DNA from: Nemertoderma westbladi
Taxonomy: Eukaryota > Animalia > Xenacoelomorpha
Assembly (NCBI GenBank): GCA_032718475.1
Contig: JAUCBJ010002508.1
Location: forward strand, 1 to 35,757
DNA: 35,757 nucleotides
Direction of reading: 5' to 3'
In this document: positions 3,255-30,178 of the stretch, piece after piece
How positions within the stretch are numbered: the first letter of the stretch is position 1
How the letters are laid out: each line of letters begins with the position of its first letter
Made by a program: the position numbers and the translations under genes
The notes under the pieces: generated by a model
Told to the model about the DNA's origin: nothing
Databases searched by the model: none
What the model saw: the letters and a program-made list of their open reading frames with translations, nothing else

Positions 3255-4499
3255 AATCAAATGCATAGTAATGTTAAATTAATATAGAAAGTTAATTATT
3301 ACAAACAAATAGAAATACTACAATAATGAAGCACAAATTATAAAAAGCATCTCAGAATAGAGACAAATTACAAAGGGGGCGGGGGAATAAGAGTTATAAG
3401 GGGGAGGGGAGATGGGATAGGGGGAGCGGGGAACGAAAGAGGAGGAGCCTAGGAGACGAGGTCCAACAGACCCTCGTCCGTGGACCTAATCGATCCTAAG
3501 ATCGAAGCGGCATTGCCGATCTGAATGGCAATGAGGAGCCTCTGTAGGAGGAATCGGTGCGACCGCGGCTCGTTGGTGACACTACGTATACGGTCGCCGA
3601 TCTCCTTCAGGAAACTGCGAGTGGAAGAGCCCGGACAGCCGTAGGTCTCAAAGGCAACCGGGGAGAAGATGTAGCCCCGGTCGACTAGCTCCCGGTATTT
3701 GGCTGTTTTCTTCTCCTCAGCCACCTCCGCAACGCGACCCCCAGCAGTCAGGGCAAGGTGTATGTGGCTGGGACAAAGGGGATCTACCACAGTCGCATCC
3801 CAAGTGACGGATTTACCATGTTTCCATGGAACCATGGTTACTCCGTCGACTCGCTTCCCGCCACTCCTGCAGAGGCCTGGAGGTTCCAGCATAGCTGGGA
3901 TCCTGCAGCTGGTCAACGCACGCTTAACCAGGTCATTGACCATGGCGTGGCGTGCGTGTCGCCCAGCGCTCCTCTTACAGGAGAGGCCATGGAGACCGTT
4001 GGGTGCGACTGGGTCGTCACAGCGGGCGCATTTGTGAGGCTCGGTGACCGGGCTACCAAGGCGTATTGCGACTGCTACTTGCAACTGCGCGCCCGTAAGT
4101 TTCAGGCCCAGCGAGCTGACCGGAATGGCCTCAAGCCAGCAACCCGACACATCGTTCTTGATACAATTTAGGCGCGCAGTATCGAGTGGCAGTGCCCCCT
4201 CGCGGATGGAAGCAAGGGACGCCTCGTGGACCGGCTGTATCAGGACACGTTGTATGGCGTCAGTGGAGGAAGTGGCAGGTGGTGTGGTGCCAGTGTGGGA
4301 AGTAACTGTGGATGTGGTGTCAGTGGGAGAAGTGAGTGATGGTCTAGGTGCGGTGGCAGTGGGAACGTGAGTGTCTGTAAAAGTTGGAAGTTGTGCGTCC
4401 CGCGCGTTGGTAGCGAGGGCAATTGCAGGATCGGGGTGGCTCCCGTCCGTTCTAAATAGGCGGCCTGAGAGATCGGAGCATGCAGCAGCAGCATGCAAC
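3255..4499 (-). mobile_element. 5'-truncated CRE-like non-LTR retrotransposon (second family)
   Basis: 10-bp TSD TGATTCTGTT (3245-3254 / 4500-4509). ORF followed by a pyrimidine-rich, then AT-rich, 3' UTR. Confidence 0.8.
3449..4498 (-). CDS. C-terminal linker/CCHC/RLE region of a CRE-like retrotransposon ORF (RT lost to 5' truncation)
   Basis: 349-aa open frame with SGCWLEAIP, CARC..HGLSC (CCHC), RHARH..VND, LEP, KRVDG, WDATV, EEKKTAKY and FSPVAFETYG, the motif order of CRE-clade RLE domains. Confidence 0.85.
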   Translation of the reverse strand: MHAAAACSDLSGRLFRTDGSHPDPAIALATNARDAQLPTFTDTHVPTATAPRPSLTSPTDTTSTVTSHTGTTPPATSSTDAIQRVLIQPVHEASLASIREGALPLDTARLNCIKNDVSGCWLEAIPVSSLGLKLTGAQLQVAVAIRLGSPVTEPHKCARCDDPVAPNGLHGLSCKRSAGRHARHAMVNDLVKRALTSCRIPAMLEPPGLCRSGGKRVDGVTMVPWKHGKSVTWDATVVDPLCPSHIHLALTAGGRVAEVAEEKKTAKYRELVDRGYIFSPVAFETYGCPGSSTRSFLKEIGDRIRSVTNEPRSHRFLLQRLLIAIQIGNAASILGSIRSTDEGLLDLVS

Positions 4500-4509
4500 T
4501 GATTCTGTT

Positions 4510-5590
4510 TAATTTCTATTGAGATTATTACCTTTATTTTAGAATGATTGAATATTAAAATTAACGGTTTATGTTATAGCTCTGAAAATAAGTGGTTTTT
4601 TAAGTTTGACGCAAAAGACGATTTTTATTTTTATAGCCAATCTCTAGTGGCACAGAGTTCAAGATTGAGGGTCCTCGAAAACTCACTGATCTCTGTGAGG
4701 AAGTTAGGTGACATAGTGGTATTGAGAAGTTGCCATGGGAAGCGCTGTGGGTATGTTAGTTGTGGGCTGAAGAACGTTTTTGGAATAGTTTACCAAGGGT
4801 GGAATTTGGGCTTATAGTTTTCGATTAAATATCATACATGAAGGTGCAAACTGATAGTTCATTGAGTTTTTTAAGTGGTAAAATATTTAATTGTTTGTAA
4901 ATGGGAATTGATGACGATCTGTAGTGTGAAAATGTAATACAGCGTAAAAGTTTATTGATTTTGGTACGTAGTGGTTTCAGAGTGGTGGAATGTGTGCTAC
5001 CCCATACCAGGATCCCATTTTTTTCTAGCACCTGATTTATATGTGTTTTCCACTTTAGTTTTGAATCTATCCGAATGCCAAGTAATTTTGTGTTGTCTGT
5101 CTGTTTTATATCGGTGTTGTTAATTTTATATTGTTATCTGTTGCTATTGGTGATAGTAGGAATAGGAAGGTTAGTAAATATGGTGTACTCAGTTTTCTTC
5201 AGGTTTAGTAATAGTTTATTGTCAGGTAACCAGTCGTAGATTTTAGTTAATTCACTGTTCGACTAGATATTAATGAGTGGATATCACGATGTGAGTTGAG
5301 TAGAGTTGTGTCGTCAGCGAAAAGTGTACAAAGTAAGTTTGTTGCTTTGGGTAAGTCATTAATAAAAATGAGAAATAGTATGGGAGAGAGGACCGATCCC
5401 TGGGGGACACCACAAATGAGAGGTAATAAAGTTGAATTATTGCCGTCGATGGAGACAAATTGTTTGCGATTAGAGAGCAAACTAGAAATAAGTTGAAGGG
5501 GTATGTCTATGATACCATAGGTTTCAATCTTATAAACAAGGAATTTGTGGTCTATTGTATCAAAGTCCTTTTTATGTGGTCAATGTATAA
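4510..5590 (-). pseudogene. Degenerate CR1/L2-group (Crack-like) LINE RT C-terminus
   Basis: LSNRKQFVSI..CGVPQGSVLSPILFLIFINDLP..LFADDTTL (5247-5480) and GILVWGST..LLRCITFSHYR..PIYKQLNIL (4825-5031), with stops and frameshifts between. Confidence 0.85.
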
Positions 5591-9769: not shown

Positions 9770-9773
9770 TTAA

Positions 9774-10610
9774 CCCTATTAGTACCAGGCTATAAAATGT
9801 TGTACAAATACCGGGGGGGGGGGGGTCATATTGACCCTTCCCTCTAAAATCTACAAATTTTAACGAAAACGTCTGATTTTTTTTGTCCATAGATTTCACT
9901 AGTCTGAATCCGACCAAAAAAAACTACAAAAATTACAAAACTAACATTACATTAGCACCAAAATTACAAGTTGTGAACAATTTTCATAAAATTTGAAAGT
10001 TACAATTTTCGGCAAATTGTTTTTTCAATACAGGTTTTCTGGTGCTTAAAATCCATTGGAAAATATTTAAAAATAATCTGATCAGTATAAATGTCTGTTT
10101 TAGTCCTCTATGTATGCAAAAAATTAAAAAAACAAGTAACCAGCACTTTTCAGTTTACACAAAATATTTAATTCACTTATACGATGCTATAAATTCACAT
10201 TTTTAGGTTTTCTGGGGCGCTGATTCTAATTGAATAGATTTCTAATTTGCCAGATCATTGCAAATCGTATTTTTCGGCGTAATATGGCAAATTTTGGTGC
10301 TAGCACCAAATTTCGTACCCATCACCAAAAAGTACAAGTTTGCGATGTCCAGTGCTGTTTTTAATGATTCCAACGGATTCAGGACCCTCATAAACCCGTA
10401 TAACGCAAGAAACAAGATTATAATATCTATTGATCAGTTTGCTTATTTTAATAAATTTGGTGCTGGCACAACAATTTTCACCCACCAACGAACCACTCAC
10501 CCACCGATACAAGTTTGAAAACTCTTATGCAATTTTTACTTATTACATTGAATTCAGAACGCTCACAAACCCGTATAACGCAAGAAACAAGGTGACACAA
10601 TCAATTTATA
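9774..10610 (+). mobile_element. piggyBac-like MITE, left half only
   Basis: TTAA (9770-9773) followed by CCCTATTAGTACC. Colinear with 23884-~24715. Ends abruptly at the BEL LTR. Confidence 0.85.
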
Positions 10611-11224
10611 TGGGTTTGTTTACGCGCTCGCATTCAATCGTTTTGTATTTACAAATTACGGGCAGTTATGATAATGAAATGTGGACAATAAAAGCACTAA
10701 TAAATAACATAATATATTTCGATAACGTAGTAAAAATATTGATAAAATAAGGGGAGGGGAAATGAATGAAACATTTACTTCGAGTATATGTGGTTACAAA
10801 TATCAGCAGAAATAAAGTGTTATCAAAGTAAATGAAATGGGACGAATGAAAAGGCGTGCAAGCGAGCGGACGGGGAGCGAGCGAGCGAGCGAGCGGTAAA
10901 AAACAATTTGTGACAACCGGTGGAGAAAATAGGAAGACTGACGAAATTGCTCAGAATGAAGTATATAATGGTAAATTATTACATCGCGAGGTGATAACAG
11001 GAGGTCAAGATGCTGAATGGAGGGGGTCAGGCCTAAAACATGAGGTTTGCATTGATGTAACACATGACGGTGCTAACATACTAGGGCTAACAAATTAGTA
11101 GATTCGACCAATGAATGTGCAGGGATACAATAATTCTGTTTGAGGTTGATGGGCGTTGTGAAGGGTTATTATTATTAATTATATAATATAATGTCAGTAT
11201 ATATCGAGAGGGGGGTGGTTATAT

Positions 11225-11470
11225 GAGTGAACATGTGGCAGCCCGCTTTAACCTGGGCCCACTTACAGTACTTGATAATGTTAGTGGGACTGAGGGGGGG
11301 CTTGTTAAGTGAATGATAAGTGGAATCTCGCTGCAACCCGAGTCCACGTACTGTACAAAATGATCATGTTAGTAAGACAAGACTTGGGGGGTTTATTATA
11401 TGAATGAAATGTGGAATCCCGCTGTAACCCGAGTCCACGTACTGTACGAATGATTTATGTTAGTAAGATG
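11225..11470. repeat. Three diverged ~90-bp tandem units in LTR U3 (also ~20557-20802)
   Basis: Core gtggaatc.cgctg.aacccgagtccacgtactgtac occurs twice, plus one more diverged unit upstream. Confidence 0.8.
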
Positions 11471-11759
11471 GATGGGTGTGTAGTACGTATTTTGATAATT
11501 TAAATGTTTAGATTATATTGAGGGTGTCGCACCAAGTCAAGGAATTTTGTTAGTTTCTGCTATAGATAGACTGGTCAATCTACGGGAATGAAAGTCTAGT
11601 TTTTCGATATGTGTGTGTACAAATATGCAAACATGCGAACCTTTTGATTGAAATACCGGTGACAACAATGACATAATTTGGAGACGAAGTGAGTATTACA
11701 ATTTTGGGACAAAACGATAAATACATAACCGAGGCGAAAATAAGAGAGGGCAGGGCTTC

Positions 11760-11940
11760 AAGTACTAGCACAATCAACTCACGTGTGGAGTTAGTAAGAA
11801 AGTGAAAGTAATTGAGAGGGTGAGGTCAAGTACTACCACAATCAACTCACGTGTGGAGTTAGTAAGAAAGTGAAAGTAATTGAGAGGGTGAGGTCAAGTA
11901 CTAGCACTAACAACTCGCGATCGGAGTTAGTAAGAAAGTG
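11760..11940. repeat. 68-bp tandem array in LTR U3 (2 full units + partial here; 3 + partial at 21092-21340)
   Basis: Unit aagtacta.cacaatcaactcacgtgtggagttagtaagaaagtgaaagtaattgagagggtgaggtc, each with a CACGTG E-box. Followed by a (GA)n tract. Confidence 0.95.
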
Positions 11941-12091
11941 AAGTAATTAACACAGAGTGAGAGAGAGAGTGAGTGAGAGAGAGACAGGGAGAGAGAGAGA
12001 AATCGATTAAAGGCGGGTAAAGCGAGTGAGGTAAAGTAAATCGAGTGATATAAAGTGAATGTTAAAGGAAATGTTAGAGCGTTGGTTGACA

Positions 12092-12104
12092 CACCGCCCC
12101 TCTT
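12092..12104 (-). promoter_or_regulatory. Polypurine tract
   Basis: AAGAGGGGCGGTG on the minus strand immediately before the TG of the 3' LTR. Confidence 0.85.
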
Positions 12105-12322
12105 GGCAGGGAGTGCCAAAAGGAGACATAGGAAAACCAACGCGATATAGATAGAGTGATAGGGTGTACAAGTCTACGTATAACCAATGAAATACTCAAC
12201 CGCCACCATACTAAAGGGTTAATATCAACGAGTTAGTACGTGTGAGATAATGAGAGAGTTCCATGTTCGAGGCGACGCGACATCGAATTTGAGTTCGAAA
12301 CAATGTTACATCGAGTTTGTGT

Positions 12323-15300
12323 TCAATCGGAGTTCTTCAGTCCGTTTCCGTCGTCCTCAGGTGTACGTCCCCAATACGAGAGCATCTCATCGGGATCGGA
12401 TCCCTCCAACAGACAAAGTTTACTAACGGGACGGAGGAGGTCTGACTTGTCGTAGGCGACGCGAACAGTGCGAACTCGTCCATCTTTACCGGGCCGAACC
12501 TCAGAAACTCGTCCGATTCTCCACGAGTTTCTAGGGAGTTTCTCATCTGTAATGATCACGACATCGTCCACCTTGAGGTTCCTCTGGGGCGCGGTCCACT
12601 TGGAACGTTTGTGGAGCGTAGGGATATATTCCCGAATCCATATGTCCCAGAAACGATCAGACAGGCCCTGTGCCTGTCGCCAGGATTTGCGGCCGAGTTC
12701 GTCTTTACGGTCAAACTTCCCTGGTGGGGATAGTTGGACAGGGTTCCTGAGGAGGAAGTGCCGAGGAGTAATCGGTTGGTCGGCGGTCGGATCGTCGGTA
12801 ACCGGGGTCAGTGGACGCGAGTTGAGGATTCCTTCTACCTCGGCCAGCACTGTACGAAAGGTGTCCTCGTTGATACGGGTTGAGTCCTTGATGGTGGCGT
12901 ATAGAGAGTCCTTAACGCTACGAATGAGGCGTTCCCATACTCCAGAGGTATGGGGGGCAAGCGGTGTCTGAAAATGCCAGGTGCAGTCCAATGTTCTCAA
13001 GTGTGAAGTCACTTTGTCTTGGTCAACTCGAGCGAGGGATTCTTTGAGCTCGGATTCGGCGCCGACAAAGTTCGTTCCGTTGTCGCAATAGAGGTGCTGA
13101 GGGGTTCCCCTTGTGGCGATGAAACGTCGTAATGCGTTGATAAAACGGTCTGTTGAGAGGTCCTCTACCATATCCAGTGCAATCGCCCTAGAATTAAAAC
13201 AAATGAATATAATGCCGTATCGTGTAATCAAGGACCTCATTCTCTTAAAGAGAAAAGGGCCAAATAGGTCCATACCTGTAAAAGCAAAAACAGGTTTATA
13301 TGGAGTGAGTCGTGACTCAGGTAAATCGGCCATTATCTGGGTCATCGTGCGAGAATGCAATCTCTTGCAAGCAATGCAAGCACTAAGCATGGTTCGTATC
13401 AACGATCTTGCATTAATGATCCAATAACGCTCTCTAAGGAATGCCAGACTGTGACTTTGTCCAGCATGGCGAAGTCTGATGTGTACATCGTGTATCAAGA
13501 GCCTGGCATAGTGACAATTCTTCGGTATAAGGATAGGAAAGCGCGCGTCGTAGGACATGGGTGCTCGTGCAACGCGGCTCCCTAGTCTCAGATATCCGTC
13601 GTCTTCGTCTAAAAAGGGAGATAGTTTCCGGATTGTACTCACCTTGGGGATTGGGGATCCAGACTTTAGAGCTGTATACTCACCTGGGAAGCCAACTCGT
13701 TGAACGTACTGTTCAATGCGCTGTTTGGCAGTGACGAGCTCCGATGAGGTCAACTTACGAGGACTACTGGGTTGTAGAGGACCACGTTTACGTCTTAGGT
13801 ATTCAAAGAAACGAATGAACCAAGACACACCGCGTATGAGTCTGTATGACTTATAATAGTGCTGTATAAGTTTGTCTGTAGGGGGCAAAGGGGCCATGGT
13901 GTTCATAGCATAGACTCGGGTGTCAGACTTAAGCTCGGGATCGTCGGAGGGTAATGTATAAGGCGCGTTGTGCGAGACCGGCCAGTATTCTGGAGTAAGA
14001 GACAGAAAGTCTGGGCCCCGAATCCATTGTTCCGTTTGTAGGAATCTCTGAGGCAATAACCCACGACTCGCATAGTCAGCGGGGTTAAGATTCCCCGGGC
14101 AATGATGCCACTGATCCACAGTGGTATGACCATGAATAAGGCTGACTCGATTGGCTACGTAAGGCTTAAAGCGACGGGATTCATTTCTCAAGTAACCTAA
14201 AGTAACAGTTGAGTCAGTCCAGAATGTCATAGAGCGGATGGGCATGTCAAGTTCTTGCCGAACTTGTACAGTCAAGTCGACGGAAAGATGTGCTGCTTGT
14301 AATTCAAGCCTGGGGATAGAGATATATCTGAGGGGGGCACTACGGGCCTTGGCAATCAAGAAGCCAGTGGTAATGGCGCCATCGGGTGTGGTTGTACGAA
14401 GGTAACTCACCATACCATACCCTTTGTCGCTGGCGTCCGAAAAGGAATGAATGTCGTAAATGTTGTCAGGTAAAGGAATAGGGGTGTAAGTCCGGGGTAT
14501 GCAGAAGTCGACCAGTAGCGTGAGTTGTAATTTCCACTCGTTCAATCGGGTCTCTAGTGGTAGTGGAATAGGGTAATCCCAGCCAAGTTTATGGCGCCAT
14601 ATATCCTGCAGCAGGATACGCAGTAAGAGGGTAACAGGGCCCAAGAAACTCAGAGGGTCGAATAGAGAACTGACTAGAGATAGGACACCTCGCTTGGTGG
14701 ACGGTGTGTCCTTCAGCCGTATGTCAATTGATAGCGTGTCATTCACAGTGTCCCAAACAAGTCCAAGGGCTGTGGTGATAGCTGTCTGTATGTCAGAGTC
14801 ACGAGTGGTATGAGTCGGGATGGCAAGGTAGGTTGGGTCTAATGACATGAGAAATTCGGAATTGTTGGAATGAAACTTGGTGAGGTGAAATCCCCCAAGC
14901 GATAAACATTCGATCAAACTTTTAGCGAGATCTACAGCTTCTAATGGGGTTTGAGCACCAGACATACCATCATCGTAATAAAACTCGTTTTGAATTGTTT
15001 CATTGACTCTTGGAGGGTATCGGTGTGCGTTGTCGGAACCTGTCCTTCGCAGAGCTGTGAGAGCGATAGTTGGGGAGTCCCCTGCTCCAAAGATATGGAC
15101 TTCCATCCAATATTCTGTAGGACTGCGATCCATGTCGCCATTCTCCCACCACAGGAATCGTAAGGAGTCCCTATCTTCCGGGTTGACTTCGACCTGGTGG
15201 AACATAGATTTTATATCGCACGAGAATGCTACAGCATGGCGACGGAATTTGCAAAGTATTCCAGACAGTAGGTTGGATTGGTCGGGTCCGTTGATTAGGT

Positions 15301-16065
15301 TGGCATTCAGAGAAGTGCCAAAGTAGGGTGCAGCTGCGTTGAACACAACTCTAATCTCGTTGGGTTTCTTGGGATATAGAACATAATGGTGCGGCAGGTA
15401 CCAAGAACGAGGGCCATGCGAGTCAATCTCAGATGGGGTGAGTTTCCTAGCGTATCCCTGTGATATATAGTCTTCAACCTGAGTGGTATAGAGAGTTAGA
15501 ACTTCCGGTTTCTTCCTGAGACGTTTCCCTAACCAAACTAAACAACGTTGTGCGTATAATTTGTTACATGGGAGCGTTACATCGTCTCGTTTCCACAGGA
15601 GACCTAGTGAGTAATGTCCGTTGGGTTTAAGGCGCATGGCCTGCAGTATGGATTGGGATCGGAGGTTTAAGGGGGACATTTCCTTTCCTAAGGAAGACGA
15701 ATGTACTTCCATCTCCCAGAATCGTCTAAGGTTCTGTTCTAGGTCGTATAAATATGAAATGTTAGGATGTTGAGATTGTTTGGATGATGTCTTGGGACTG
15801 AATGGAACCAATGTAGTCATTGTCGGGTGTGGGTTCTGTGTCACTTCACAGTTTGAATCGGAACCAGGGTCAAAAGTAGCTGCAGTTCGTTCAGGGGGAG
15901 AATGTCGGTCATTGAGTGTATCCAAGTCGTTAACGTCAGATAGGGTACAACGTATTTGTGAGGTGGGATAAATGTCAAGGTCATCGTCTGGGGCAAGATT
16001 AGGGCCACAGACTGACCATCCAAACGGAGTTTGGACAGCGTACGGATGAGTCTGGGGGTTCGGGC
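12323..16065 (-). CDS. pol: BEL/Pao Pol: reverse transcriptase, RNase H, integrase
   Basis: The frame of ORF 12323-15925 extends upstream through GPNPQTHPYAVQTPFGWSVCGP. RT: WYLPHH, RVVFNAA, CDIKSMFHQV, FYYDD. RNH: FSDAS, SIPRLELQAA, WTDS, NPADYASRG. INT: HHCC, MDLFGP, CDNGTNF, GVWERLIR, WIREY. Confidence 0.95.
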
Positions 16066-19000
16066 CCCGCGAGATTGAAGTTGCATCAAGGCGACTGGGG
16101 CATCCTGTCCCAACAAGACTGTTACTTGAGGGATGTCTAAAGGGGGATGACTCAAGTCTAAGTCAGCTAAGTGGGGCCATTCTCTGATATTCCAACACCT
16201 TGGGGTTACAAAGTTGTCTCTAAACCCTTTCATGACATCGAAAGTGACATTCACTAGTATAGCGGTCCCATTACTGCGGACAGGAGAGACATTACACTTG
16301 ATAGCGCCGACTTCTATGAGTCTCTCTTTGTCTAGACAGGTACTAATTGGGATGGTCCTATACTGAGTGCAATGGAGACGTAATGGGGGCAAGTTTCGGT
16401 CATCGAGTATTGATTGGTCAGAGCCTGGGTCAATCAACGCGTATGTTGTAAGAGACATTGTAGTATGATCTGAAGTGAGACGAACAGGGACTGTCTGTAG
16501 AACAGTATTTCTCTTTTGAAATCTGTGAAGACAGGTATTTCGTGAAGACATAGGGGGATGACTTGTCACGTGTTTGTTAGGGGCTGACGCAGTGGAGCGA
16601 GGCATGGGTGTGGGTGTATTAGCGGATGAGTGAGGAATTCTAGTAAATGGCGCATTGGGGGGATGCAATAGTGAATGATGTTTGTTCGACTTGCACGTCT
16701 TGCATGTATATTTAGACAAGCAGTCAGCGGTCAAATGGCCTCGTCCAAGGCAGTTGCGGCACATGTCATGGGAAGGATAATTTGCAACGAAGTTATCTTT
16801 ATCATGATATGTGAGGTTTAGGAAGGAATCACAGCCATAGATTTTATGACCTCCATCGAAGTACATGCAGCGAAGTCTATTCTGACTGGTGGCACTGATG
16901 GTTTGTGTACCATCTATGGGTAACTGAGGTGCATTGGGAGGAAGGCTAGGTCTAAGAGGGGTTGTAGACGTAGTCCTAACTTGTTTTGGTACTGCTGAGG
17001 TGAGTGCCTGAAAGCTAGCTGGGGGTCGGGTCTTTGGTTTACCAGTGCCATAGTAATTCAATACGCTGACTTCCTGGTCTAGGAAGTTGACAAGATCAGA
17101 GACCTGAGGTTCCACCCGTTTGTTGGTATGAAGTTTGGTTGCGTGGCGGGTCCAGCGATTAACCAGTTCGATAGGCAGCCTGGAAGCTAAGAGATCCATA
17201 TTGCTGGGGTCATTCAACCGGGTCGAACTACCAATGGATTCCAGGGTGGCGTGGCTAATAGATATATCGTCGATAAACTTTAATAAGTCGGATGCCGTGA
17301 GGTTCAGTCTAGGGCCCTGGGTCAGCTGGTTCAAGATAGACCTTGAGACTTCCCTGGGGTGTCCGTACCTCTTGTCGAGTTGGGCCCAAGCGAGTGTATA
17401 CCCATTGTCTGAGCTGCGGTATAACTCGGCAACGCGGCGGGGTTCGCCAGCTGTGAACTGTATGAGATAGATATGTTTCTCATTGTCAGGGATAGGTTTA
17501 GAGTCTATAAGGTCGTAGAATGTCTGCTTAAACTGGACATAGTCTAGTAACTTGCCGTCGAATTTGGATGGTTGCAATGTGGGTAACGTCAACTTTAGGA
17601 GGGCAGATTGTTCTGAGTTGAGGCTACCAGCAAGGGGTCTAGGAATAGTTGAGTCAGATTTGTAATCAAGTGAATGTTGAGGAACAGTGGGGACGGGAGT
17701 TTGGGATGAGAGTGTGTGATGGTTACTGATGGTGTTAGGGTTGGGTAATGTTAGTGCAGATGATTGCTGGTGATTCGTGTGACTATTTAAAGGTCGGGCT
17801 GACAGAGTAGAAGGGCAAATATTACCAAAGTTAACCAATGGATCTGCCGAGTGGTTGGTAGGTACAGATGGTAGATGTTGGAATCTTGCCGATGACTCTA
17901 CAGTCGGGGGGTTAAAGGGTGCGACATCAGGGTTTAAAGTTGATGGCAAGGATGCGGGTACACAACTCACAGTATGCGGGAGGACCACAGATTGCGTGGT
18001 TATATTGTGAGCAGTGACAGGGGGGTGATTAGTCGAGCAAACTATTGGGATAGCAGTGGTGATGTTGATGCTGGGGCGTGTCGTCACAGTCATAGGTTGT
18101 GAGGGTAGCGAGGGGGGAAATGACTGGGTAGTGCAGGGGTAAGGGGATGGTAGAGTTACAGTAGGCGCGGTTGTTGGGATATTGTCGGTGGATAAGGTAG
18201 TAATTGGTATCGGTATAGTAGGAGTGGGACCACTACATACAGTAACAATGCTGTTTCGGTTTTGTTCATTAATTTCGTTTGCGTAAAACTCCGCCTCCAG
18301 TTCTAGCTCTCTGCATTTTGCATCGCGTTGAATCTGCTTACTCCTCTTAGATAATTCGTCTAAATGTTGGTACGTTTGCATTTGTGCCTTATATTTCATA
18401 AGTTTGAGTCGAGTAGCACGAGCTAATCCACTCAGTTTAGAACTGGAGACGGCTGAGATCGTGGGGTGAGAGTTTATTTGACTTACCGAATCTCCAGGGT
18501 TCACGTCTACTATTCTCGACTTTACCTGATTACCAATATTACCGTTTTGAGTTTCCACAGTTTTCGTCTGGGGGTTGTCCTGTGTGACAGAGTTCACAAC
18601 ACTCAAGGGGTTGGAGGGAATCCCCACTAAGTTGACCGAAGTCGAGACTGGAACCTGAGGGGAAACTAAGGGACTCGCATCAGTGTTGTTCGAATTATTC
18701 ACACTGACACCTAGATTTAAATGATCGTTAACTACCAGTACTGACAGTGCTGCAGGTACCGGTAATGGGTTATTTTTATTGTACTCAACCGGTAGGTCTA
18801 TAGGCATGATAGGCCTAATTGTATTTTGAAACCCAGATTCGTTATGGATTACGAAATCTCTAGAGGCGTTTAAAAAATCAGTTAATAATTCCTGGTCACA
18901 TGTTTCCCTATTGGGATTAGGGTTATCGGGTGCCGATACCGGTAGGCCTATTTCATTGCTCTGTAAGTCTACATTTGCATTTAGTAAAGTTAGGTCCGGC

Positions 19001-19638
19001 GATGAAAAGCCACGAAAAGGTGTGGGATTGTGATACTCATCTATGCAAGCTGTAGTGAGGGAACAACGGACGTGTCTCGGTCCCGCACTAGATGTTTTGT
19101 CACCTAAGGGGGTTAGTGTAAAATCACCATGAGAATTATTTATGTTACCTGTTGCTGTTGGGTGGGGCAGTGCGAGCGAAGTCCTCCTTGCCCGTTCTGA
19201 AGGAAGATTTGGTGGATCTACTACGGGGATAGATTCACTTTGTGCGTCCTCCTGATAATCGGCATATTTGCGCTCCAGTTGATAATACCGGGCTTCAGCC
19301 TCGGCATAATCATGTGTGAATTTGTTGTAAAGTGTATTATTCTGAGCCCGAAAGTTAGGGATAAGTAAAATTTGATGTGTTTTGCTCCGGTACTTACCGA
19401 ATGATAGTTTGAAAGTGTTGAACGACGCTTCTATTAAGCCGTCCTCTACAGGGCCGGTTAGCGAGAGGTGGTAGGCGAGTGCGTTGTGGGCGCGTGTAAA
19501 TGAAGATTTAAGTCCACTCAGAGCACGCGAATCGAGAGCTCGCGAATCGTCGACATTTGGAGAGCCACCGTGGTCAGAAGTGATGGAGGAAGACGCATCC
19601 TCGTCGAGTTGGTGTTGGCTACCGGTAGCAGTAGCCAT
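15841..19638 (-). CDS. gag: BEL/Pao Gag + aspartic protease (true homology ends at the frameshift near 16066)
   Basis: 1265-aa ORF with LPTLQPSKFDGKLLDYVQFKQTF (DUF1759-like), CMYFDGGHKIYGC / CRNCLGRGHLTADC / CKTCKSNKHHSLLH, and protease ALIDPGSDQS. The residues after SRG are out-of-frame read-through. Confidence 0.93.
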   Translation of the reverse strand: MATATGSQHQLDEDASSSITSDHGGSPNVDDSRALDSRALSGLKSSFTRAHNALAYHLSLTGPVEDGLIEASFNTFKLSFGKYRSKTHQILLIPNFRAQNNTLYNKFTHDYAEAEARYYQLERKYADYQEDAQSESIPVVDPPNLPSERARRTSLALPHPTATGNINNSHGDFTLTPLGDKTSSAGPRHVRCSLTTACIDEYHNPTPFRGFSSPDLTLLNANVDLQSNEIGLPVSAPDNPNPNRETCDQELLTDFLNASRDFVIHNESGFQNTIRPIMPIDLPVEYNKNNPLPVPAALSVLVVNDHLNLGVSVNNSNNTDASPLVSPQVPVSTSVNLVGIPSNPLSVVNSVTQDNPQTKTVETQNGNIGNQVKSRIVDVNPGDSVSQINSHPTISAVSSSKLSGLARATRLKLMKYKAQMQTYQHLDELSKRSKQIQRDAKCRELELEAEFYANEINEQNRNSIVTVCSGPTPTIPIPITTLSTDNIPTTAPTVTLPSPYPCTTQSFPPSLPSQPMTVTTRPSINITTAIPIVCSTNHPPVTAHNITTQSVVLPHTVSCVPASLPSTLNPDVAPFNPPTVESSARFQHLPSVPTNHSADPLVNFGNICPSTLSARPLNSHTNHQQSSALTLPNPNTISNHHTLSSQTPVPTVPQHSLDYKSDSTIPRPLAGSLNSEQSALLKLTLPTLQPSKFDGKLLDYVQFKQTFYDLIDSKPIPDNEKHIYLIQFTAGEPRRVAELYRSSDNGYTLAWAQLDKRYGHPREVSRSILNQLTQGPRLNLTASDLLKFIDDISISHATLESIGSSTRLNDPSNMDLLASRLPIELVNRWTRHATKLHTNKRVEPQVSDLVNFLDQEVSVLNYYGTGKPKTRPPASFQALTSAVPKQVRTTSTTPLRPSLPPNAPQLPIDGTQTISATSQNRLRCMYFDGGHKIYGCDSFLNLTYHDKDNFVANYPSHDMCRNCLGRGHLTADCLSKYTCKTCKSNKHHSLLHPPNAPFTRIPHSSANTPTPMPRSTASAPNKHVTSHPPMSSRNTCLHRFQKRNTVLQTVPVRLTSDHTTMSLTTYALIDPGSDQSILDDRNLPPLRLHCTQYRTIPISTCLDKERLIEVGAIKCNVSPVRSNGTAILVNVTFDVMKGFRDNFVTPRCWNIREWPHLADLDLSHPPLDIPQVTVLLGQDAPVALMQLQSRGARTPRLIRTLSKLRLDGQSVALILPQTMTLTFIPPHKYVVPYLTLTTWIHSMTDILPLNELQLLLTLVPIQTVK

Positions 19639-19875
19639 GGCGGGCTGTCAGGCTGATGCGTACTGGCTGACGGGCGTAGCCTACGGTGTACTGGTGTATG
19701 GCAGTATAGTGCAGTGCAGTAGGCAGTAGCGTACTGCAGTACTGGAATGTAGGCCCAGCTACACTAATACTGTAATAAGGTCCACTGTCAAAACCCTAGG
19801 CTGCTAGGCACTAGGCTACAACAGTTTAAAAACGCCCTAAGCACTAACTACAGAACTAAGATGCCGGTGGAAAAG

Positions 19876-19889
19876 AAATTGTTTTTTAC
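19876..19889 (-). promoter_or_regulatory. Non-tRNA primer binding site (self-priming candidate)
   Basis: Minus strand GTAAAAAACAATTT directly follows ..GACACTTTCA. 14/14 complementary to the LTR segment 20228-20241. No TGG tRNA-type PBS at this junction. Confidence 0.8.
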
Positions 19890-21491
19890 TGAAAGTGTCT
19901 ATCATTGGGACACTCAAGGGAGGTTTCGGTTGCAAAATTGAGTTTCTTTATTAACGCGCTCGCATTCAATCGTTTTGTATTTACAAATTACGGGCAGTTA
20001 TGATAATGAAATGTGGACAATAAAAGCACTAATAAATAACATAATATATTTCGATAACGTAGTAAAAATATTGATAAAATAAGGGGAGGGGAAATGAATG
20101 AAACATTTACTTCGAGTATATGTGGTTACAAATATCAGCAGAAATAAAGTGTTATCAAAGTAAATGAAATGGGACGAATGAAAAGGCGTGCAAGCGAGCG
20201 GACGGGGAGCGAGCGAGCGAGCGAGCGGTAAAAAACAATTTGTGACAACCGGTGGAGAAAATAGGAAGACTGACGAAATTGCTCAGAATGAAGTATATAA
20301 TGGTAAATTATTACATCGCGAGGTGATAACAGGAGGTCAAGATGCTGAATGGAGGGGGTCAGGCCTAAAACATGAGGTTTGCATTGATGTAACACATGAC
20401 GGTGCTAACATACTAGGGCTAACAAATTAGTAGATTCGACCAATGAATGTGCAGGGATACAATAATTCTGTTTGAGGTTGATGGGCGTTGTGAAGGGTTA
20501 TTATTATTAATTATATAATATAATGTCAGTATATATCGAGAGGGGGGTGGTTATATGAGTGAACATGTGGCAGCCCGCTTTAACCTGGGCCCACTTACAG
20601 TACTTGATAATGTTAGTGGGACTGAGGGGGGGCTTGTTAAGTGAATGATAAGTGGAATCTCGCTGCAACCCGAGTCCACGTACTGTACAAAATGATCATG
20701 TTAGTAAGACAAGACTTGGGGGGTTTATTATATGAATGAAATGTGGAATCCCGCTGTAACCCGAGTCCACGTACTGTACGAATGATTTATGTTAGTAAGA
20801 TGGATGGGTGTGTAGTACGTATTTTGATAATTTAAATGGTCAGATTATATTGAGGGTGCCGCACCAAGTCAAGGAATTTTGTTAGTTTCTGCTATAGATA
20901 GACTGGTCAATCTACGGGAATGAAAGTCTAGTTTTTCGATATGTGTGTGTACAAATATGCAAACATGCGAACCTTTTGATTGAAATACCGGTGACAACAA
21001 TGACATAATTTGGAGACGAAGTGAGTATTACAATTTTGGGACAAAACGATAAATACATAACCGAGGCGAAAATAAGAGAGGGCAGGGCTTCAAGTACTAG
21101 CACAATCAACTCACGTGTGGAGTTAGTAAGAAAGTGAAAGTAATTGAGAGGGTGAGGTCAAGTACTACCACAATCAACTCACGTGTGGAGTTAGTAAGAA
21201 AGTGAAAGTAATTGAGAGGGTGAGGTCAAGTACTACCACAATCAACTCACGTGTGGAGTTAGTAAGAAAGTGAAAGTAATTGAGAGGGTGAGGTCAAGTA
21301 CTAGCACTAACAACTCGCGATCGGAGTTAGTAAGAAAGTGAAGTAATTAACACAGAGTGAGAGAGAGAGTGAGTGAGAGAGAGACAGGGAGAGAGAGAGA
21401 AATCGATTAAAGGCGGGTAAAGCGAGTGAGGTAAAGTAAATCGAGTGATATAAAGTGAATGTTAAAGGAAATGTTAGAGCGTTGGTTGACA
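19890..21491 (-). repeat. 5' LTR, complete, 1602 bp
   Basis: TGTCAAC start at 21491. AATAAA at 19952-19947, a 6-bp U5 hairpin AGTGTC/GACACT and a CA end at 19890 abutting the PBS. The last 64 bp are inferred because the 3' LTR lacks them. Confidence 0.85.
20268..20300 (-). promoter_or_regulatory. LTR core promoter: TATA-like box + initiator
   Basis: Minus strand TATATA (20299-20294) lies 28 nt upstream of the A in TCAGTC (A at 20271), which is canonical TATA-Inr spacing. Same site in the 3' LTR at 10936-10968. Confidence 0.65.
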
Positions 21492-22716
21492 AATAGAATG
21501 CCTGTGGATCTATCGTCCACTGTGGCAGACCAGACCATGCGAAATATAATTTTCGGCCTGATATGGTCTAACAGCTTGGTTAGGTTGCCTTCCCATAGAT
21601 GGCCGAGCGTAATCTGCACACGTACCCGTTTGTATACATGTACCAGGTTTTGCTGCTGCTGTCACCGTAATAGTTATAGGATGATTTACTGTACATACCG
21701 TTAGAGGATTTGCTGTACAATTGGTATAATGTCCCCCCTACTGTATTGGTGACAATCACGCTTGTACTTTCAATTATTTGATTATTTCTACTGTTTATAA
21801 TATTGGGATTATTAAAATAATTATTTTGGTCTGATATTAAATCATTAATATTTGTTACCTTTCCATCATTATAAACTTGAGTTCCAACTGACTTTTTCAT
21901 TTGTCCAGTTAATATATCTAATTATCTATATATAATATATTATTCCTTATTCCTTTGTTGGTCTCTTTCATTTGGTCTTACTAATCGCTGGACAGGGAAC
22001 CGGTTATTGGAAAGTCCAGTCGAGTGATGTGTTTTGACCCCAGAAGTAGTGTCATAAATAAGAATGGTTGTGTAACTAGTCCTAATGTGCATCACACCAA
22101 TACACCAATAATGTTATCGCCACTACATTGCGAACAACGTACCAACCACCTAACAAATCTTAAGTAAATCCTATCATAACCTAAGCAACAAATATCAAGA
22201 AGAGAGAAAGAGTAAAGACTATTTGATGTAGAACTCAAGGAATAAAGTCCACATACAATATCGTCATTAAATACACAAATAATACCACTAACACCAACAT
22301 CTGGTCACTCTACAGTTAGCACATTAATCATTCCCTATAGCAAATCAAGGCACCTGTACTCTAACTAAACAATAAACATACTCATCCATCTGTGAAGGCT
22401 CTCCTAACATAATATATTGTCCCCTTCTACTGAATAACAATTGTTACCTCCTCATTACCGGAAGTATACTGTTTTTCTATGGTATAATAACCACTACAAT
22501 ATAATCATTACACTTGATTGGGCTTTAGCTAATACACAGTGTTTAAACTTTCTTCAATACGTGATATATTGCCTGCTCACACCTCACCCATGTAACTAAA
22601 CGCCACACCTTCATACATCATATCTCACCATGTAGCCAATAATACATCCTCCGTGTTTACAAATCTAATTGTCCTTTATTGGTTTTGGTATTATCATTTA
22701 CACCCTTCATTGATAT

Positions 22717-23343: not shown

Positions 23344-23883
23344 AATTAATATTACTCAATGTGATAAACTTCAACACATTATAAGTAATTATAAGGTTTA
23401 GAATTAAACCATAAAGTATTAAATGGGATTAGCCCTATACACACTTCGCCACCCCAGAAACCAATATGTTTCGAGACCTGAAACAACTGTCACCACTCTA
23501 CAGCATCGATGCCAGTTAACATGCAATGTTTGGATTAGGTCTGCATGTAGGCGACGATACTCCAGAATAGGGAGACCAAGATAGCGTAGATGTTCTGTAT
23601 ATGTTCTGTCCCTTATATTTTTAATTGGGCAGTTTGTGCGTCTTTGGACTGATTCGAGGAGTTGCATTTGACCAATTTTATATGTGACCAGACAAGAGAA
23701 GCATATTCTGAAACTGGACGGACCAGAGATTTGTATAAGCTGGTAAACAATATTTGGTCGAAATTCCTGAAGCTTCGAAACATCAAACCAAGAACTTTGA
23801 TTGCCTTCTTTGTAATTGTCGCAATGTGACTGTCAAATTGAAGATCACTTTCTAAGATCACACCTAGTCCTTCTCCTTTAAAA

Positions 23884-25436
23884 CCCTATTAGTACCGGGC
23901 TATAAAATGTTGTACAAATACCGGGGAGGGGTCATATTGACCCCCCCCTCTAAAATCTACAAATATTTACGAAAACGTCTGATTTTTTGTTTGTACGTAG
24001 GTATCACTTGTCTGGATCCGACCGAAAAAAAAAATTTTCGAAAAATGTACTGGGGTGGTTATATTGCAGCACCAAAATTACAAGTAGTGCACAATTTTCA
24101 CCAAATTTGAAAGTTACATTTTCGGCTAATTATTTTTCAATACAGGTTTTCTGGGGTGCAAAATACATTGGAAAATATTAAAAAATGATATGATTACTAT
24201 AAATGGCTGTTTAGTCCTCTCTGCGTAGGAAAAAAATGAAAAAAAAACAAGTAACCAGCACTTTTCAATTAGAACACAAAATTTTTAATTCACTTATACG
24301 ATGCTATAAATTCACATTTTCAGGTTTTCGAGGGCGCTGATTCTAATGTAATACATTTCTAATGTGCCAGATCATTGCTACTTGTATTTTTCGGCGTAAT
24401 TTGGCAAATTTTGGTTCTAGCACCAAATTTCGTACCCATCACCAAAAAGTACAAGTTTGCGATGTCCAGTGCTGTTTTTATTGATTCCATCAGATTCAGG
24501 ACCCTCATAAACCCGTATAACGCAAGAAACAAGGTGATACTATCTACTTATCAATTTGCATATTTTCCAAAATTTGGTGCTGGCACAACAATTTTCACCC
24601 ACCGGCTAAAAATACAAGTTTGAGAACTCTTATGAAATTTTTACTGATTCCATTGAATTCAGAACTATCTCAAACCCGTATAACGCAAGAAACAAGGTGA
24701 CACAATCAATTGATATATTTGATGGTTTTCAAAATTTGGTGCTAGCACCACATTTTGCACCCACATCCGAAAAATACAAGTTTGAGATGTCTAGTTCGAT
24801 AATCATATTTTCCATTGAATTCAGAACAGCCATAAACCTCTAAAACGCAAGAAATAAATTGTCACAAGCAATTTTATCTATTGAATGGATTTTCAAAATT
24901 TCGTGCTAGCACCAAAATTTGCACACAGCACCGAAAAATACAAGTTTGATACGCTTGGTGCAACTCGTATATATTTCATCGAATCCAGAAACCCAAAAAA
25001 CCCCAATTGCGTAAAAAACAAGTTTAAAACGTTCAATTTACAAAATTGACTTATTTCAAAATTTGGTGCTGGCACCAAAATTTGGTACCCGCCGAAAAAT
25101 ACAAGTTTGAAATTTCTAAATCAATTGATATGAATTCCATCAAATTTCTAACACCAAAAAACCGGTGTAAATCAAAAATAGAGATGTTACAATTCATATT
25201 TAATGAAATGTAATTTTCAAAAAACGTCTCAAAAAAAGTGCCAAAAGTAGGGTTAAAAAATGGTGCTATAACTCGAAAAGTACCCAATATTTTTGAAAAC
25301 GGTTTTCACTACTAGGAAGACAATAGATTTTTAGGAAAAGTCATAAAATTTCAGATTCCCAACTGCGTTTGTTTCAGAATTATAATAAAAAAACCATGGG
25401 AGGGGTCATATTGACCCCCCCCCGGGTTTAATAGGG
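23884..25436 (+). mobile_element. piggyBac-like MITE, complete, 1553 bp
   Basis: Termini CCCTATTA..TAATAGGG followed by TTAA (25437-25440); left flank degenerate (tttaaaa). GGGGTCATATTGACCCC palindrome near both ends. Five ~162-bp internal repeats. No transposase. Confidence 0.85.
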
Positions 25437-25643: not shown

Positions 25644-28600
25644 TACTACTACTACTAGGTCGAGCGAACTCGGACAGTGGAAATGAGATCCTTCCAGGCT
25701 TCCCGATTCTCCATAGTTGTCGCAATTTCGTTTCTCCTAAGTTCAGTATCCCTTTCAAGTTGATCTATATATGTTATGGCCAGTCATCCACGACTACGCT
25801 TTCCATGAGTTGGTTGCCAGAAAAGTAGATCTGGTATGACCTCGTCTTTACTTCGTCAGCAGTGCCCACTGAATCTTATTCTGCGTTCACGGAGGGTGGT
25901 TGATACAGGTGGTATTGTACCATAAAGCTCGGCGTTAGTCAGTGTCCAGGTCTCACCCCCATATAAAAATACACTTTCCACTGTGGCTCGAAAGAACTTA
26001 GTCTTCAGGTGCCTGGAGAGATCTGATTTCCAGATGGTATCCATTTTTGATAGAGCTACCCAAGCCTTTGCTTTCCTAACTTCTATGTCCTTTTTGCTAC
26101 TCTCTCTCCATGATCCAAGATACTGGAAGTCATCGACCTTCCTTAGTTGATTATTATCAATGGTTGTCAAGTTTCCATCAACATTAAAGGTCATGAATTC
26201 GGTCTTTGTAGCATGTATATGCAATCCAACCTCCTTAGCAGCCCTCTTCACTTTATTTAGTAGAAGCTGTGCATCTGCTAGGGTATTAGAGAGCAGCGCG
26301 ATGTCATCCGCAAAGTCGGTGTCTGTGACTGTAGTTGCCGGATATCTACTACTTCTGCGTTCTTGAAGTGTGAATCCCAGGTCTTCACCCTTTGTGGCCG
26401 TCCTCATTGCGTAATCCAGCACAATTACAAATAGTAATGGTGCTAGTGTGTCACCTTGCAGTACGCCAGCCAGGATTGAGAAAAACTCAGTTTCCCATCT
26501 GGTGAGAGTACCTGCGCTTCTGTGTCACAATATAACAATCCAATGTGTGACGGGATCCGAGAGGATCCCGGTTTATCCGGTGTCGCTTATGTACGCGTCC
26601 CCGCCGTGCGAATGAAGAGATAATAGTTTGCGTTGTTCCGATGTTATTGATAACATAATACTGTAATATATATAATATGGTAAATATAGATAGCAGATAG
26701 CAGTTGACCGGTAATAACTGAGTAAACTGGTGACGGCGATGACGGTCTAAATTGTCACCGTACTACCGTGACTGTAGTGACAGACTGAGATAACTGAGGT
26801 GAATGAATAGCACGACTGGTAATATATTGCACGGTTTGGCCTTATTACTGTACCTAGTCGATGCTGTCCCCCCATTGGCTAATATCCCACTTCTCGCCCT
26901 TTCACCTTCCCTGGTGTGTTTCCCGTTGCCCCTGTTGTTCTCTCTCTGTTAGGGGTTTGGCCCCTGACCCCTATTGTGTGTTTCTCCTTCCCTTCCCACT
27001 TTATTGGGGTGACACGAGGTTGATATTGGTAATCAACCTCGTGCTCCCAATATTGCTTTATGGCTCACTTTATGGGGTTTGGTGAGGTGGAATTGATTCG
27101 CTAACACAATGCCAGCAACAATTACTTCTGGTATTCCATAAGCTCTTAGGATTTCAAGCATTTTACCTCTATGGATGGAGTCGAATGCCTTCTTGAAGTC
27201 CACAAAAGTCATGACAGCGGGGAGATTCTTTGACTTAATTCCTTCAATCAGTCTCCGTAGTGCAAGTATCTGAGCTATTGTTGATCTACTTGGTCGAAAT
27301 CCGTTTTGGCTCTTACGCAGTAGTTTCTCTATGTGAGGCCTAATCCTATATAGAATCATTTTATTGTATATTTTGGCAGCTACCACAAGCAGACAGATCC
27401 CACGATAGTTTGTTGGTATGCCGAGGTCTCCTTTCTTGGGGAGAGGCTTTAGTTGACCTTTAGTCCAAATTGGTGGTGGCTTTTCCCCTTTTAACATCCG
27501 GTTGCAAACATTCAATAATGGTCTGTTTAGCACTCCGGTTTTCCATACCTCCGCTGGGATTTCATCTAATCCACTCGCTTTATTATTGGACATGCTTTTA
27601 ATGCTTCTTTTGCAGTTCGGCAGGTGTGAAGTCCCCTGTTTCTATAGGTAGTGTCTTGTCATATATTTTCCTTGTAGGGCTGACTTCGATGTTTGGTGGC
27701 TGCCCAAGCAAGTTGCTGAAGTGATTTTTCCACTTCCCAACATGTTCTTCAGGACTATCGGCTTTGAGGCGCCCCTTTGCACAACTTTTCCGACCAGATA
27801 CCTCATTTACAGTTTGCCAGGTAAGTCTTGATTGTTGCTGTATGTGAGCAGTTGTAATTGCTTCAGTTTTATCCTGTATGTACTTTTCCTGGCTGATGTT
27901 GTAGGCCAATTTAAGATCGTCCTTAGCTTTCTCAACCTTGTTAATGTTTTCGGTTGTTGGTTGTTCGGTTTTAACTTTGTAGGCTATCTTAAGATCTTCT
28001 CTCTTACAAGTAACCTCAGAGTTTTGCCATGGCACATATTGTTTTCGTTTGGGTTTCTGGGGGATATGCCTCTTAGCTGATTCCTTGTGGGCTGTTATTA
28101 TATTCTGGTATATTGAATTGGTGGATTGGTCTTCATCCATTGACTGAAGTGCTTCAAAGCGGTTTTGAACTTCTACTGTATAAGCATCCTTTACAGCATT
28201 GTCAGTTCTGAGTTTTTCCCAGTCATATTTGATTTGCTTGCTTGTCCTGGGTTTGCTGGCTCTCAAACTGAGTCTGATCTCTGCAGTCACAATTCTGTGG
28301 TCCGAACCAATTAGGTTGAACGAGCTGTATGCCTCGCAGTTGATCATGCTGTTTCTCCACTTTTTGATTATAAGGATGTAATCCAGTTGTGCTTTGGTTC
28401 CATTAGGGTATTGAAAGGTCCATAGCTTCCCCTTACTCTTTTCGAATGTGTTGTTTGTTGGTATCAATTCACATTCTTCCATTAGGTCTAAAAGTAAGTA
28501 CCCATTTCTGTTAGAACTGGTGTTATAGGTGTAACCCTTGAGGTCTTCTGGGCCAATTTGGGCATTCAGGTCACCAGCAATGACTTTAACATTGTGTTTC

Positions 28601-28783
28601 AGAATGTCCTTTATAAGTCCAGTCAGTTCTTCATAAAACTTGACTGCTTGTTCTGGCTCTGAGGCATTGGTTGGACTGTAGCAACATATAACTGTTGCCT
28701 TGGGATTCCCATCAAATGTTGCGATCATAACCCTGGAATTTATAGATTCAATGTTGTTTAGGGTCTTAAATGGGCTTAGCAGA
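25644..28783 (-). mobile_element. RTE-clade LINE (APE-RT), 5'-truncated and pseudogenised
   Basis: APE CYSPT..GDLNAQIG..QLDYILI..GSDHRIV (27598-28791). RT PLPKKGDL..NYRGI..FVDFKKAFDSI, GVLQGDTLAP, DFADDIALL. (TAG)n tail. TSD ATCAAC (25638-25643 / 28784-28789). Frameshifts and an internal deletion near 25935. Confidence 0.93.
26546..27106 (+). mobile_element. 561-bp TG..CA element, copy B of the TGTGACGGGATC family
   Basis: 5-bp TSD CAATG (26541-26545 / 27107-27111). Starts TGTGACGGGATC, ends GGAATTGATTCGCTAACA. Splits the RTE RT. Confidence 0.9.
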
Positions 28784-29801
28784 ATCAACAAAAATATAAA
28801 TGTTGTTGGTGATGAAATTTAGGTTATCGTTGACAAATCCAATGAACATTATAACTCCCGCAATGCTACCTTTACCTCACCTTTAACCATGAACCACAGA
28901 GAACATTCACCAGAGACAACAACTCGTTGAAATCGGTTGGTGATTAAATTGTACTAATTACCTGCAATCCCCAGAGACTTCAACTTTTCTATTAGGTGTC
29001 AGTGTGGTACCTAGTAAAAATCCTTTTTAAAATCGAGATATGCGACATCAACACAATTTCCAACATCAAGAGCCGCAGACAAGTTAGATGACATCTAGCA
29101 ACTGAAAAGTGCAGGACCTACCACGAAGACAACCATACTGGTCCTTTGTAATGCGTAGAAATTCTTGTAGATATAAATATATTACATCACGTGCAAACAA
29201 CACTTGTTAAGCTTATGCCTCTGAAGTTGCTCCACAAGTTCTTTTTTCCAATTTTATACAGTGGTACAACATTTGCCAGTTTCCAATCACTGGGTAGAGT
29301 ATGGGTATCCATTGATTTTTTAAATATAATTGATAGTAGATTAGCAATGGATAATGCAGTTTCCTTTAAAACTTGTGGATAGACATTGTCTGGTCCAGGA
29401 GAACTTGTTGATTTCATTTTCTTTATGGAGTTTAGGACTGACTCACAAGAAAAGTCTACTTAACTCAACAGTGGTGCGTTAGAAGGGGGATGTTTAGCAG
29501 AGAAAATGTCAATGTCAGATTCTACCATGAAAATGCTGTTAAAATACTTGTTTAGAGAAGTCGCTTTGGCAATATTAGTCTGAGCAGTGAAACCATCATC
29601 ATTAATGAGATCACAGACAGAGACATCTGGACTTTCTGTTTAGTACTACATATCACCAAAATTCTTTCTGATTAGTAGCTCCCTTGAGGGATGGTGCGCT
29701 CCATGTCAGCGTGAGCTTTGCGCATTGCAGTAGTGCAAATATTCCTAGGATAACACATTGTATCCTACACCATGTTAGCTTGTCTGTACGGGCATGGCAA
29801 G

Positions 29802-30178
29802 CGCTTTAGGTCAATGGGTACAAAGGTCAATGGGTACAACAACGGGTCAAAGGGAACAAAACGAGTCAAAGGGTACAAAACAGGACGTCAAAAGGTACAA
29901 AAAAAAACGAGTCAAAGTGTACAACATCAAAGGGTACAAACAAGGCGGTTATATAGTTATTTTATTATTTTGGTTAGGGTTAGTTGGTCAGGCCTCAACC
30001 ATAATTAAAACTGTCATGTAACCCTAACCCTAAGTCATAATCTAAGTAATTCCGCAAAATATCTTAAATTATAACTTAGGATTAGGGTTACATGACAGTT
30101 TTAATTAGGGTTGAGGCCGCCACTACTGTAACCATTGTTTGTACTCTTTGACGCGATGTACCCATTGACTCAGAATCT
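29802..30178. mobile_element. Foldback/MITE-type non-autonomous DNA transposon
   Basis: 8-bp direct repeat ATGGCAAG (29794-29801 / 30179-30186). Subterminal gtcaa(a/t)gggtaca repeats inverted at the two ends. Internal ~50-bp inverted arms (~29990-30041 / ~30069-30118). Confidence 0.75.

Follow-up and report, generated by a model that had tools for sequence, protein, structure and literature searches.

The window analysed here is the whole 35,757-nucleotide stretch of contig JAUCBJ010002508.1 (assembly GCA_032718475.1) of Nemertoderma westbladi, and it carries an LTR retrotransposon on its minus strand, to which all features of the element below belong, with the 5' LTR beginning at 21491 and the 3' LTR at 12091. 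The 5' LTR (19896–21491, 1596 bp, TG...CA) was delimited by LTR-LTR alignment at its start and by junctions of sibling copies at its end, and its sequence contains an AATAAA polyadenylation signal at 19947–19952. A gag-protease ORF (15841–19647, first ATG at 19638) with DUF1759, Cys/His motifs and a protease-like motif overlaps, in a different frame, an RT-RNase H-integrase ORF (12323–16162) with Peptidase_A17, Integrase_H2C2 and DUF5641, both identified from open reading frames and Pfam; a polypurine tract region is recognisable in the sequence at 12092–12105. The 3' LTR, traced by LTR-LTR alignment to 10615–12091 and including a second copy of the putative primer at 10896–10909, is cut short in U5 by another repeat, and neither its remainder nor the right flank of the element was found within the window. 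Both LTRs agree at 1472 of 1477 aligned bases, with one 68-bp repeat unit more in the 5' than in the 3' copy, and the insertion is therefore young. The five bases to the left of the element (21492–21496) recur past the LTR end in one contig of the public run X2 and are probably the target-site duplication of this insertion; the flank of that sibling beyond these five bases is absent from the window.

The assignment to BEL/Pao, made in an earlier note on this DNA, is borne out by DUF1759, Peptidase_A17, Integrase_H2C2 and DUF5641. The Gag-PR-RT-RH-IN order with Pao-type domains is present (Pfam), together with LTRs, TG..CA ends, a polypurine tract and a short target-site duplication, the last seen via one sibling contig. 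All 120 homologues among the matches listed were of BEL/Pao type with PF05380, at 39–45% identity, and those named to species came mostly from marine invertebrates and fish. The element may resemble the Sinbad, Suzu and Sailor clades of BEL/Pao, to our knowledge the least studied superfamily of LTR elements. Its LTR-gag-PR-RT-RH-IN-PPT-LTR layout is that of Belpaoviridae (Semotivirus), with an LTR of 1.6 kb exceeding the 0.2–1.2 kb quoted by the ICTV, whose account describes the replication of the family as poorly understood and gives it an 18-nt primer-binding site (PBS) for host tRNA-Arg or tRNA-Gly (PMC8742986). Such a site is absent from the window element; this trait is descriptive, and membership of BEL/Pao rests on the Pol proteins.

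Further repeats occur in and around the element. U3 contains 68-bp tandem units and 86–91-bp units, at 21068–21348 and 20538–20800. An 85%-identical repeat with subunits of ~163 bp occupies 9772–10611 and 23882–24716, one copy abutting and truncating the 3' LTR. Non-LTR retrotransposon fragments, namely an endonuclease ORF with a weak Exo_endo_phos_2 match and RT pieces, lie at 25856–28818 on the minus strand, and a 128-bp, MITE-like near-palindrome with 61-nt arms, 90% complementary, at 29991–30118. A 374-aa frame at 3449–4573 (minus strand) had no Pfam match; its C-terminal part presumably resembles the restriction-like endonuclease end of CRE/NeSL-type retroelements.

The end of the 5' LTR was mapped with contigs of four public runs matching 19600–20400, which stem from three studies (X1 and X3 share one sample) and one of which may be the source of the window sequence. 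Among the matches listed (24 of 40), contigs left the LTR for unrelated flanks at 19896 (at least seven), 19895 (at least four) and 19894 (at least one), which places the end at 19896, where the LTR terminates ...GATAGACA, with the scatter expected from chance matches; at least two further contigs, of the same letters, left at 19903. Contig depth rises 1.7- to 7-fold across 19896/19897. No exits at 19890 or 19786 were seen among the matches listed (24 of 40, and 9 of 16 in a second mapping), and run X5 contributed nothing further at the LTR end. The 3' LTR of the window stops ~55–60 nt short and therefore cannot fix this boundary. An end at 19786, where TTGACA is followed by TGG, was rejected, having no sibling junctions among the matches listed, unlike 19896. 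Contigs of X1 and X4 that cross the PBS and leave the element at ~19750 (window 19750–19924) suggest internally deleted or non-autonomous derivatives.

Two details of the earlier note had to be given up at this point. It had placed the LTR end at 19890 and let the 3' C of the proposed primer pair with the first base after the LTR; at least 12 sibling junctions put the end at 19896, so that a 6-nt spacer (19890–19895) intervenes and the complementary motif starts 7 nt after the LTR. Taken literally, the agreement of siblings with its LTR end also failed, their end lying 6 nt earlier. As relatives defined by two LTRs (see below) have spacers of 0–4 nt, the end at 19896 corrects the geometry without refuting self-priming; the 6 nt of the window element are the longest spacer observed.

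What the earlier note had reported of the motif itself was confirmed. The 14-mer at 19889–19876 of the minus strand has exact complements at 20241–20228 and 10909–10896, giving three matches in the window as against none in 100 shuffles, and the post-LTR sequence is free of a tRNA-type site, no TGG occurring in the 30 nt that follow the LTR and the first being met at 19784. We accordingly refer to 19876–19889 as a candidate non-tRNA PBS and to 20228–20241, matched at 14 of 14 positions and ending ...AC, as the candidate self-primer. The motif is A+T at 12 of its 14 positions and includes a 6-base run; none of 65 control windows further down the same leader reached its score. A primer split by an intron was also considered for the window element and rejected, the best junction giving only 9 nt at poor sites as compared with 14 contiguous ones.

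In the predicted fold of 20271–19760 the 14-bp primer-PBS helix appears in both the MFE and the centroid structure with a pairing probability of 0.98, accompanied by a 5-bp outer helix and by a 7-bp U5 hairpin (19893–19915) beside the PBS, likewise in both structures, which would cover the LTR end and half of the spacer. The overall fold of the leader is no better than that of shuffles (z -0.71). Variants of this region were encountered in the public runs: X1 and X2 hold a diverged LTR subfamily (window 20034–20307) in which the primer-bearing 272 nt are swapped for 152 other letters, and a low-depth contig of X3 (window 19937–20223) misses most of R from 5 nt past the predicted cut site onward, which may reflect a mis-jump during strand transfer.

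The transcript start is indicated by one contig of X4, a run taken as cDNA solely from its adapter. This contig begins at 20271, at the A of TCAGTC, behind an adapter that we take to be of the template-switch type, TCAGTC being presumably initiator-like, and a TATA-like box is found in the sequence 28 nt before it (20294–20299). Transcription starting downstream of 20228, which would have spoken against the earlier note, is thus not what was seen: the start lies upstream of the primer in this one contig, and the primer is therefore internal to the RNA, at +31 to +44. The same contig has a joint between 20252 and 19777 with eight letters between, read as a 22-nt first exon (20250–20271) joined to 19784 with one mismatch. 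The 465-nt GT..AG intron defined in this way (19785–20249, one contig of one run) takes in the primer together with the remainder of R, U5, the PBS and four upstream ATGs, all of which are missing from the spliced RNA, leaving a leader of 168 nt to the gag ATG; other X4 contigs cross the PBS unspliced. The weak donor is not of the GTRAG type, and the mismatch lies 2 nt before it, so that the spliced contig, one of a single run, may come from another copy. On the evidence of this contig, the isoform devoid of primer and PBS is likely the mRNA, unable to self-prime.

Relatives were collected from 80 metagenome and 19 MAG loci (99 loci); none of 145 pattern matches in viral contigs was a relative. 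Both LTR ends were readable from two copies in 16 families. Fifteen of the 16 had no TGG site, and their post-LTR sequences differed from one another; 14 of these 15 had a perfect complement of 11–15 nt in their own LTR, starting 0–4 nt after the CA. The complement is contiguous in two of the 14 (L049 and L097), and in the other 12 the match exists only across a predicted intron of 76–697 nt that begins with a GTRAG donor and ends in a YAG acceptor rich in pyrimidines. A search open to every GT and every AG picked a GTAAG donor for the best junction in all eight split elements of the first set. A second set of seven loci, fetched after the idea had arisen, comprised four split elements, one contiguous element, L092, in which 10 of 11 positions pair with one mismatch, and a TGG control. 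In 9 of the 14 two-LTR relatives the match has a length of exactly 11 nt, as does the Tf1 primer. In the TGG-type family L089 the self-complement score was only 5, and L091 scored 8 with 700 nt of its LTR searched and 11 with the whole tail. A crude pattern search for an acceptor downstream of the PBS in the relatives, as a general genome/mRNA splice switch would have it, gave no consistent result.

In an unrooted tree of 29 RT-RH segments, built from the fetched loci only, contiguous-primer elements appear scattered among split ones, and the window element, on a long branch, groups with two split elements (97/84, 98/92). Spacer length goes with the type of polypurine tract: tracts ending GAGCCA occur with no post-LTR spacer (L049, L070, L073, L087, L092), tracts with GGGGCCGG with spacers of 2–4 nt (L001, L019, L022, L023, L033, L038, L097). 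L089 (7553–13532) is a complete BEL element with 203-bp LTRs ~95% alike, a 5-bp target-site duplication and a TGG-type PBS, located in a 1.44-Mb record titled Wolbachia chromosome; this placement reflects either mis-assembly or Wolbachia DNA integrated in an insect genome.

Several controls bear on whether these complements are specific. For each of 17 elements, 65 windows further down its leader served as controls. In 13 elements none of them reached the observed score; it was reached once in L049, twice in L091 (whose score came from the truncated LTR), five times in L092 and 50 times in L089. When the PBS of one family was paired with the LTR of another, 6 of 272 pairs reached 11, all among three families sharing a PBS. 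Between the sister families L083 and L095, three primer bases at exon ends are changed together with the three PBS bases paired with them, and L025 (split) and L014 (contiguous) likewise differ in matched positions. A blind scan of 43 further loci returned nine split matches (at least 11 nt), four contiguous ones and 30 blanks, many of the blank loci ending before the LTR. Swapped targets gave split matches in 0 of 129 and matches of any kind in 12 of 129, for which reason split calls are safe and contiguous calls less so. One contiguous blind match, that of L029 (12 nt, 33 nt away, a local hairpin), was dropped, as were secondary matches in L005, L030 and L076, prior to the count of 27 positives. 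The 3' end of the primer reads AC in 22 of these, AT in three and ACT in two; that of the window element ends in AC. The covariation across relatives that the earlier note had proposed as a check is therefore present, as a family-specific complement in 14 of the 15 TGG-less relatives.

The AT-rich composition of the motif and the misplaced LTR end at 19890 might suggest that the complement is accidental, or the product of a single local inversion; this reading is contradicted by the shuffle, within-leader and cross-family controls and by the lineage-wide pattern, and we find it scarcely credible. Very improbable, in our opinion, is priming by a host tRNA, tRNA fragment or small RNA, whether the post-LTR site or the TGG at 19784 were used, even if the ICTV gives an 18-nt tRNA-Arg/Gly PBS for the family (PMC8742986) and TTGACA followed by TGG stands at 19791–19782. 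That TGG lies 112 nt beyond the LTR end at 19896 and marks instead the beginning of exon 2. A primer for the post-LTR site would moreover need a run of six U; such a run is a Pol III terminator, which argues against a Pol III product in this role. Furthermore, the post-LTR sequences vary by family and track the LTR of each family itself.

A different function of the duplex has also to be weighed, namely control of RNA processing, by hiding the 5' polyadenylation signal or setting the choice of splice sites, with something else acting as the primer. The duplex encloses AATAAA in the window element and, where the signal was found, in most relatives, and in the window element it opens 8 nt past the X4 splice donor. 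Such a role would not account for a site fixed at 0–6 nt past the LTR, for the conservation of the AC/AT end, for Watson-Crick pairing at every position or for the absence of an alternative PBS from all 15 families, and we judge it quite unlikely.

The predicted structures raise the further question of whether the primer acts in cis. Across 16 elements the primer-PBS helix had a predicted probability of at least 0.68 in six and of at most 0.19 in ten, and this poor prediction in the majority would fit priming in trans by the same sequence, borne on a second packaged RNA or on a short (spliced) transcript of a solo or 3' LTR, in place of fold-back. The far greater depth of LTR contigs than of internal ones points the same way, implying that LTR-only templates are abundant. 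Speaking for fold-back are the 0.98 helix of the window element with its flanking hairpin and, to the extent that the accessible text on Tf1 describes it, the derivation of the Tf1 primer from the 5' end of its own mRNA; a trans primer would, besides, still need a cut after ...AC, as the polyadenylation signal lies downstream of it. We consider priming in trans unlikely, and retain fold-back of the element's own RNA as the preferred reading.

Self-priming has been described for Tf1, Tf2, Tj1 and the Tf1/sushi group (PMC7175516, PMC4600332, PMC10085805, PMC5341516), and the comparisons with it here follow those parts of the papers that were accessible. As in these elements, a tRNA-type PBS is missing and a complement of ~11 nt links the post-LTR site to the element's own R (PMC7175516, PMC10085805, PMC4600332). 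Two of the three duplexes of the Tf1 'pretzel' have predicted counterparts in the window element, the central duplex and the U5 hairpin beside the PBS; the third helix predicted here involves sequence 5' of the primer and differs from the third of Tf1. The Tf1 primer consists of the first 11 nt of the RNA, whereas that of the window element is internal (+31 to +44, from one contig and promoter motifs); moreover, a predicted intron interrupts the primer in 12 of 14 relatives, and a spacer of 0–6 nt follows the LTR. The Tf1/sushi elements are Ty3/gypsy chromoviruses, whereas the window element is BEL/Pao, with Pao-type domains and no chromodomain match; it would work like Tf1 and is not a member of the Tf1/sushi group. 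The analogy to Tf1 drawn in the earlier note is thus upheld in part: the complement within the element's own RNA and the missing tRNA PBS stand, the position of the primer and its interruption by an intron in most relatives do not conform.

Self-priming has also been predicted for the plant Ty1/copia TAR lineage (Houba, Osr-1) and for Tcn1, by complements of at least 10 nt starting 0–5 nt after the LTR (PMC6317226). These belong to other superfamilies, and the accessible part of that paper deals with contiguous complements matched by blastn and has no primer divided by an intron. In Tf2, according to the portion of the report available, alternative start sites yield an isoform without the self-primer that is translatable and not reverse transcribed (Persson et al. 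2016, PMC5341516); the start site shifts there, whereas in the window element a splice appears to remove the primer (one contig). In departure from the ICTV description, the tRNA site is absent in the window element and in 15 of 16 defined relatives. The literature check that the earlier note had called for turned up no report of self-priming, nor of a splice-built primer, in BEL/Pao, with subscription journals, Repbase Reports, GyDB pages and supplements outside the search. A term look-up in PMC554778, PMC3118150 and PMC2774666 found no mention of a PBS, and the accessible parts of PMC3601003, PMC6934838 and PMC8220671 held nothing on BEL self-priming. The literature was also searched for a tRNA-like primer encoded by a Cer element, and no such paper was found. 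The element in question, from C. elegans, reportedly encodes its own tRNA-like primer.

Taken together, the family-specific covariation, the lack of a tRNA-type site and the start upstream of the primer support the proposal of the earlier note that priming in this part of Belpaoviridae is tRNA-free. We think it probable that these elements are self-primed, with splicing building the primer in the relatives and removing it in the window element. The unspliced RNA of the latter would fold back so that +31 to +44 pair with the site 7–20 nt after the LTR; a cut after ...AC, presumably by the element's own RT/RNase H as in Tf1, would free a 3' OH. Extension of this end by RT would proceed through the 6-nt spacer, U5 and R as far as the cut, followed by a jump to the 3' R. 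Removal of the spacer would have to take place before integration or in the course of it, and plus-strand copying of the primer would regenerate the PBS in every cycle. Rewriting the PBS from the primer each time would explain why the match is free of wobble and family-specific, spliced junctions included. In most relatives a predicted LTR intron interrupts the primer of ~11 nt with its AC or AT end, so that only spliced RNA could prime, and a daughter would keep the intron only if its 3' copy stays unspliced; otherwise intron-less families would arise. In the window family, splicing from +22 to past the PBS would yield an mRNA-type RNA with primer and PBS gone. Pairing, cleavage, priming and spacer removal in vivo, splicing of the introns in relatives and the division of labour between isoforms are what we infer from these patterns. 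Two features set demands on the scheme: the 6-nt spacer needs unusual end processing, and an internal primer leaves ~30 bases unpaired at the 5' end, so that plus-strand copying has either to halt before them or to cope with them.

A more general reading, which we hold to have about an even chance of being right, is that in a widespread BEL/Pao lineage of aquatic animals the spliceosome acts as a switch between genome and messenger: removal of the LTR intron would build the ~11-nt primer in most families, and in intron-less ones splicing would excise primer and PBS from the mRNA. The window element would represent the intron-less members; its LTR end is mapped, a candidate site for its cap is at hand, and its apparent splice removes the primer. 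The scheme makes exact predictions, a cut after ...AC at 20228 and junction-spanning primers in 12 families. tRNA-based PBS filters in LTR finders would miss or mis-bound such elements. If true, Belpaoviridae would gain their first case of self-priming, and splicing would for the first time be seen to assemble a primer for reverse transcription; tRNA-free priming throughout the lineage would mean that self-priming had arisen independently once more, here with a primer internal to the RNA and with host splicing engaged in making it. It would also raise the question of how an intron survives in an LTR that passes through RNA, the 5' copy being spliced and the 3' copy not, and retrotransposition in these elements would be tied to the control of splicing.
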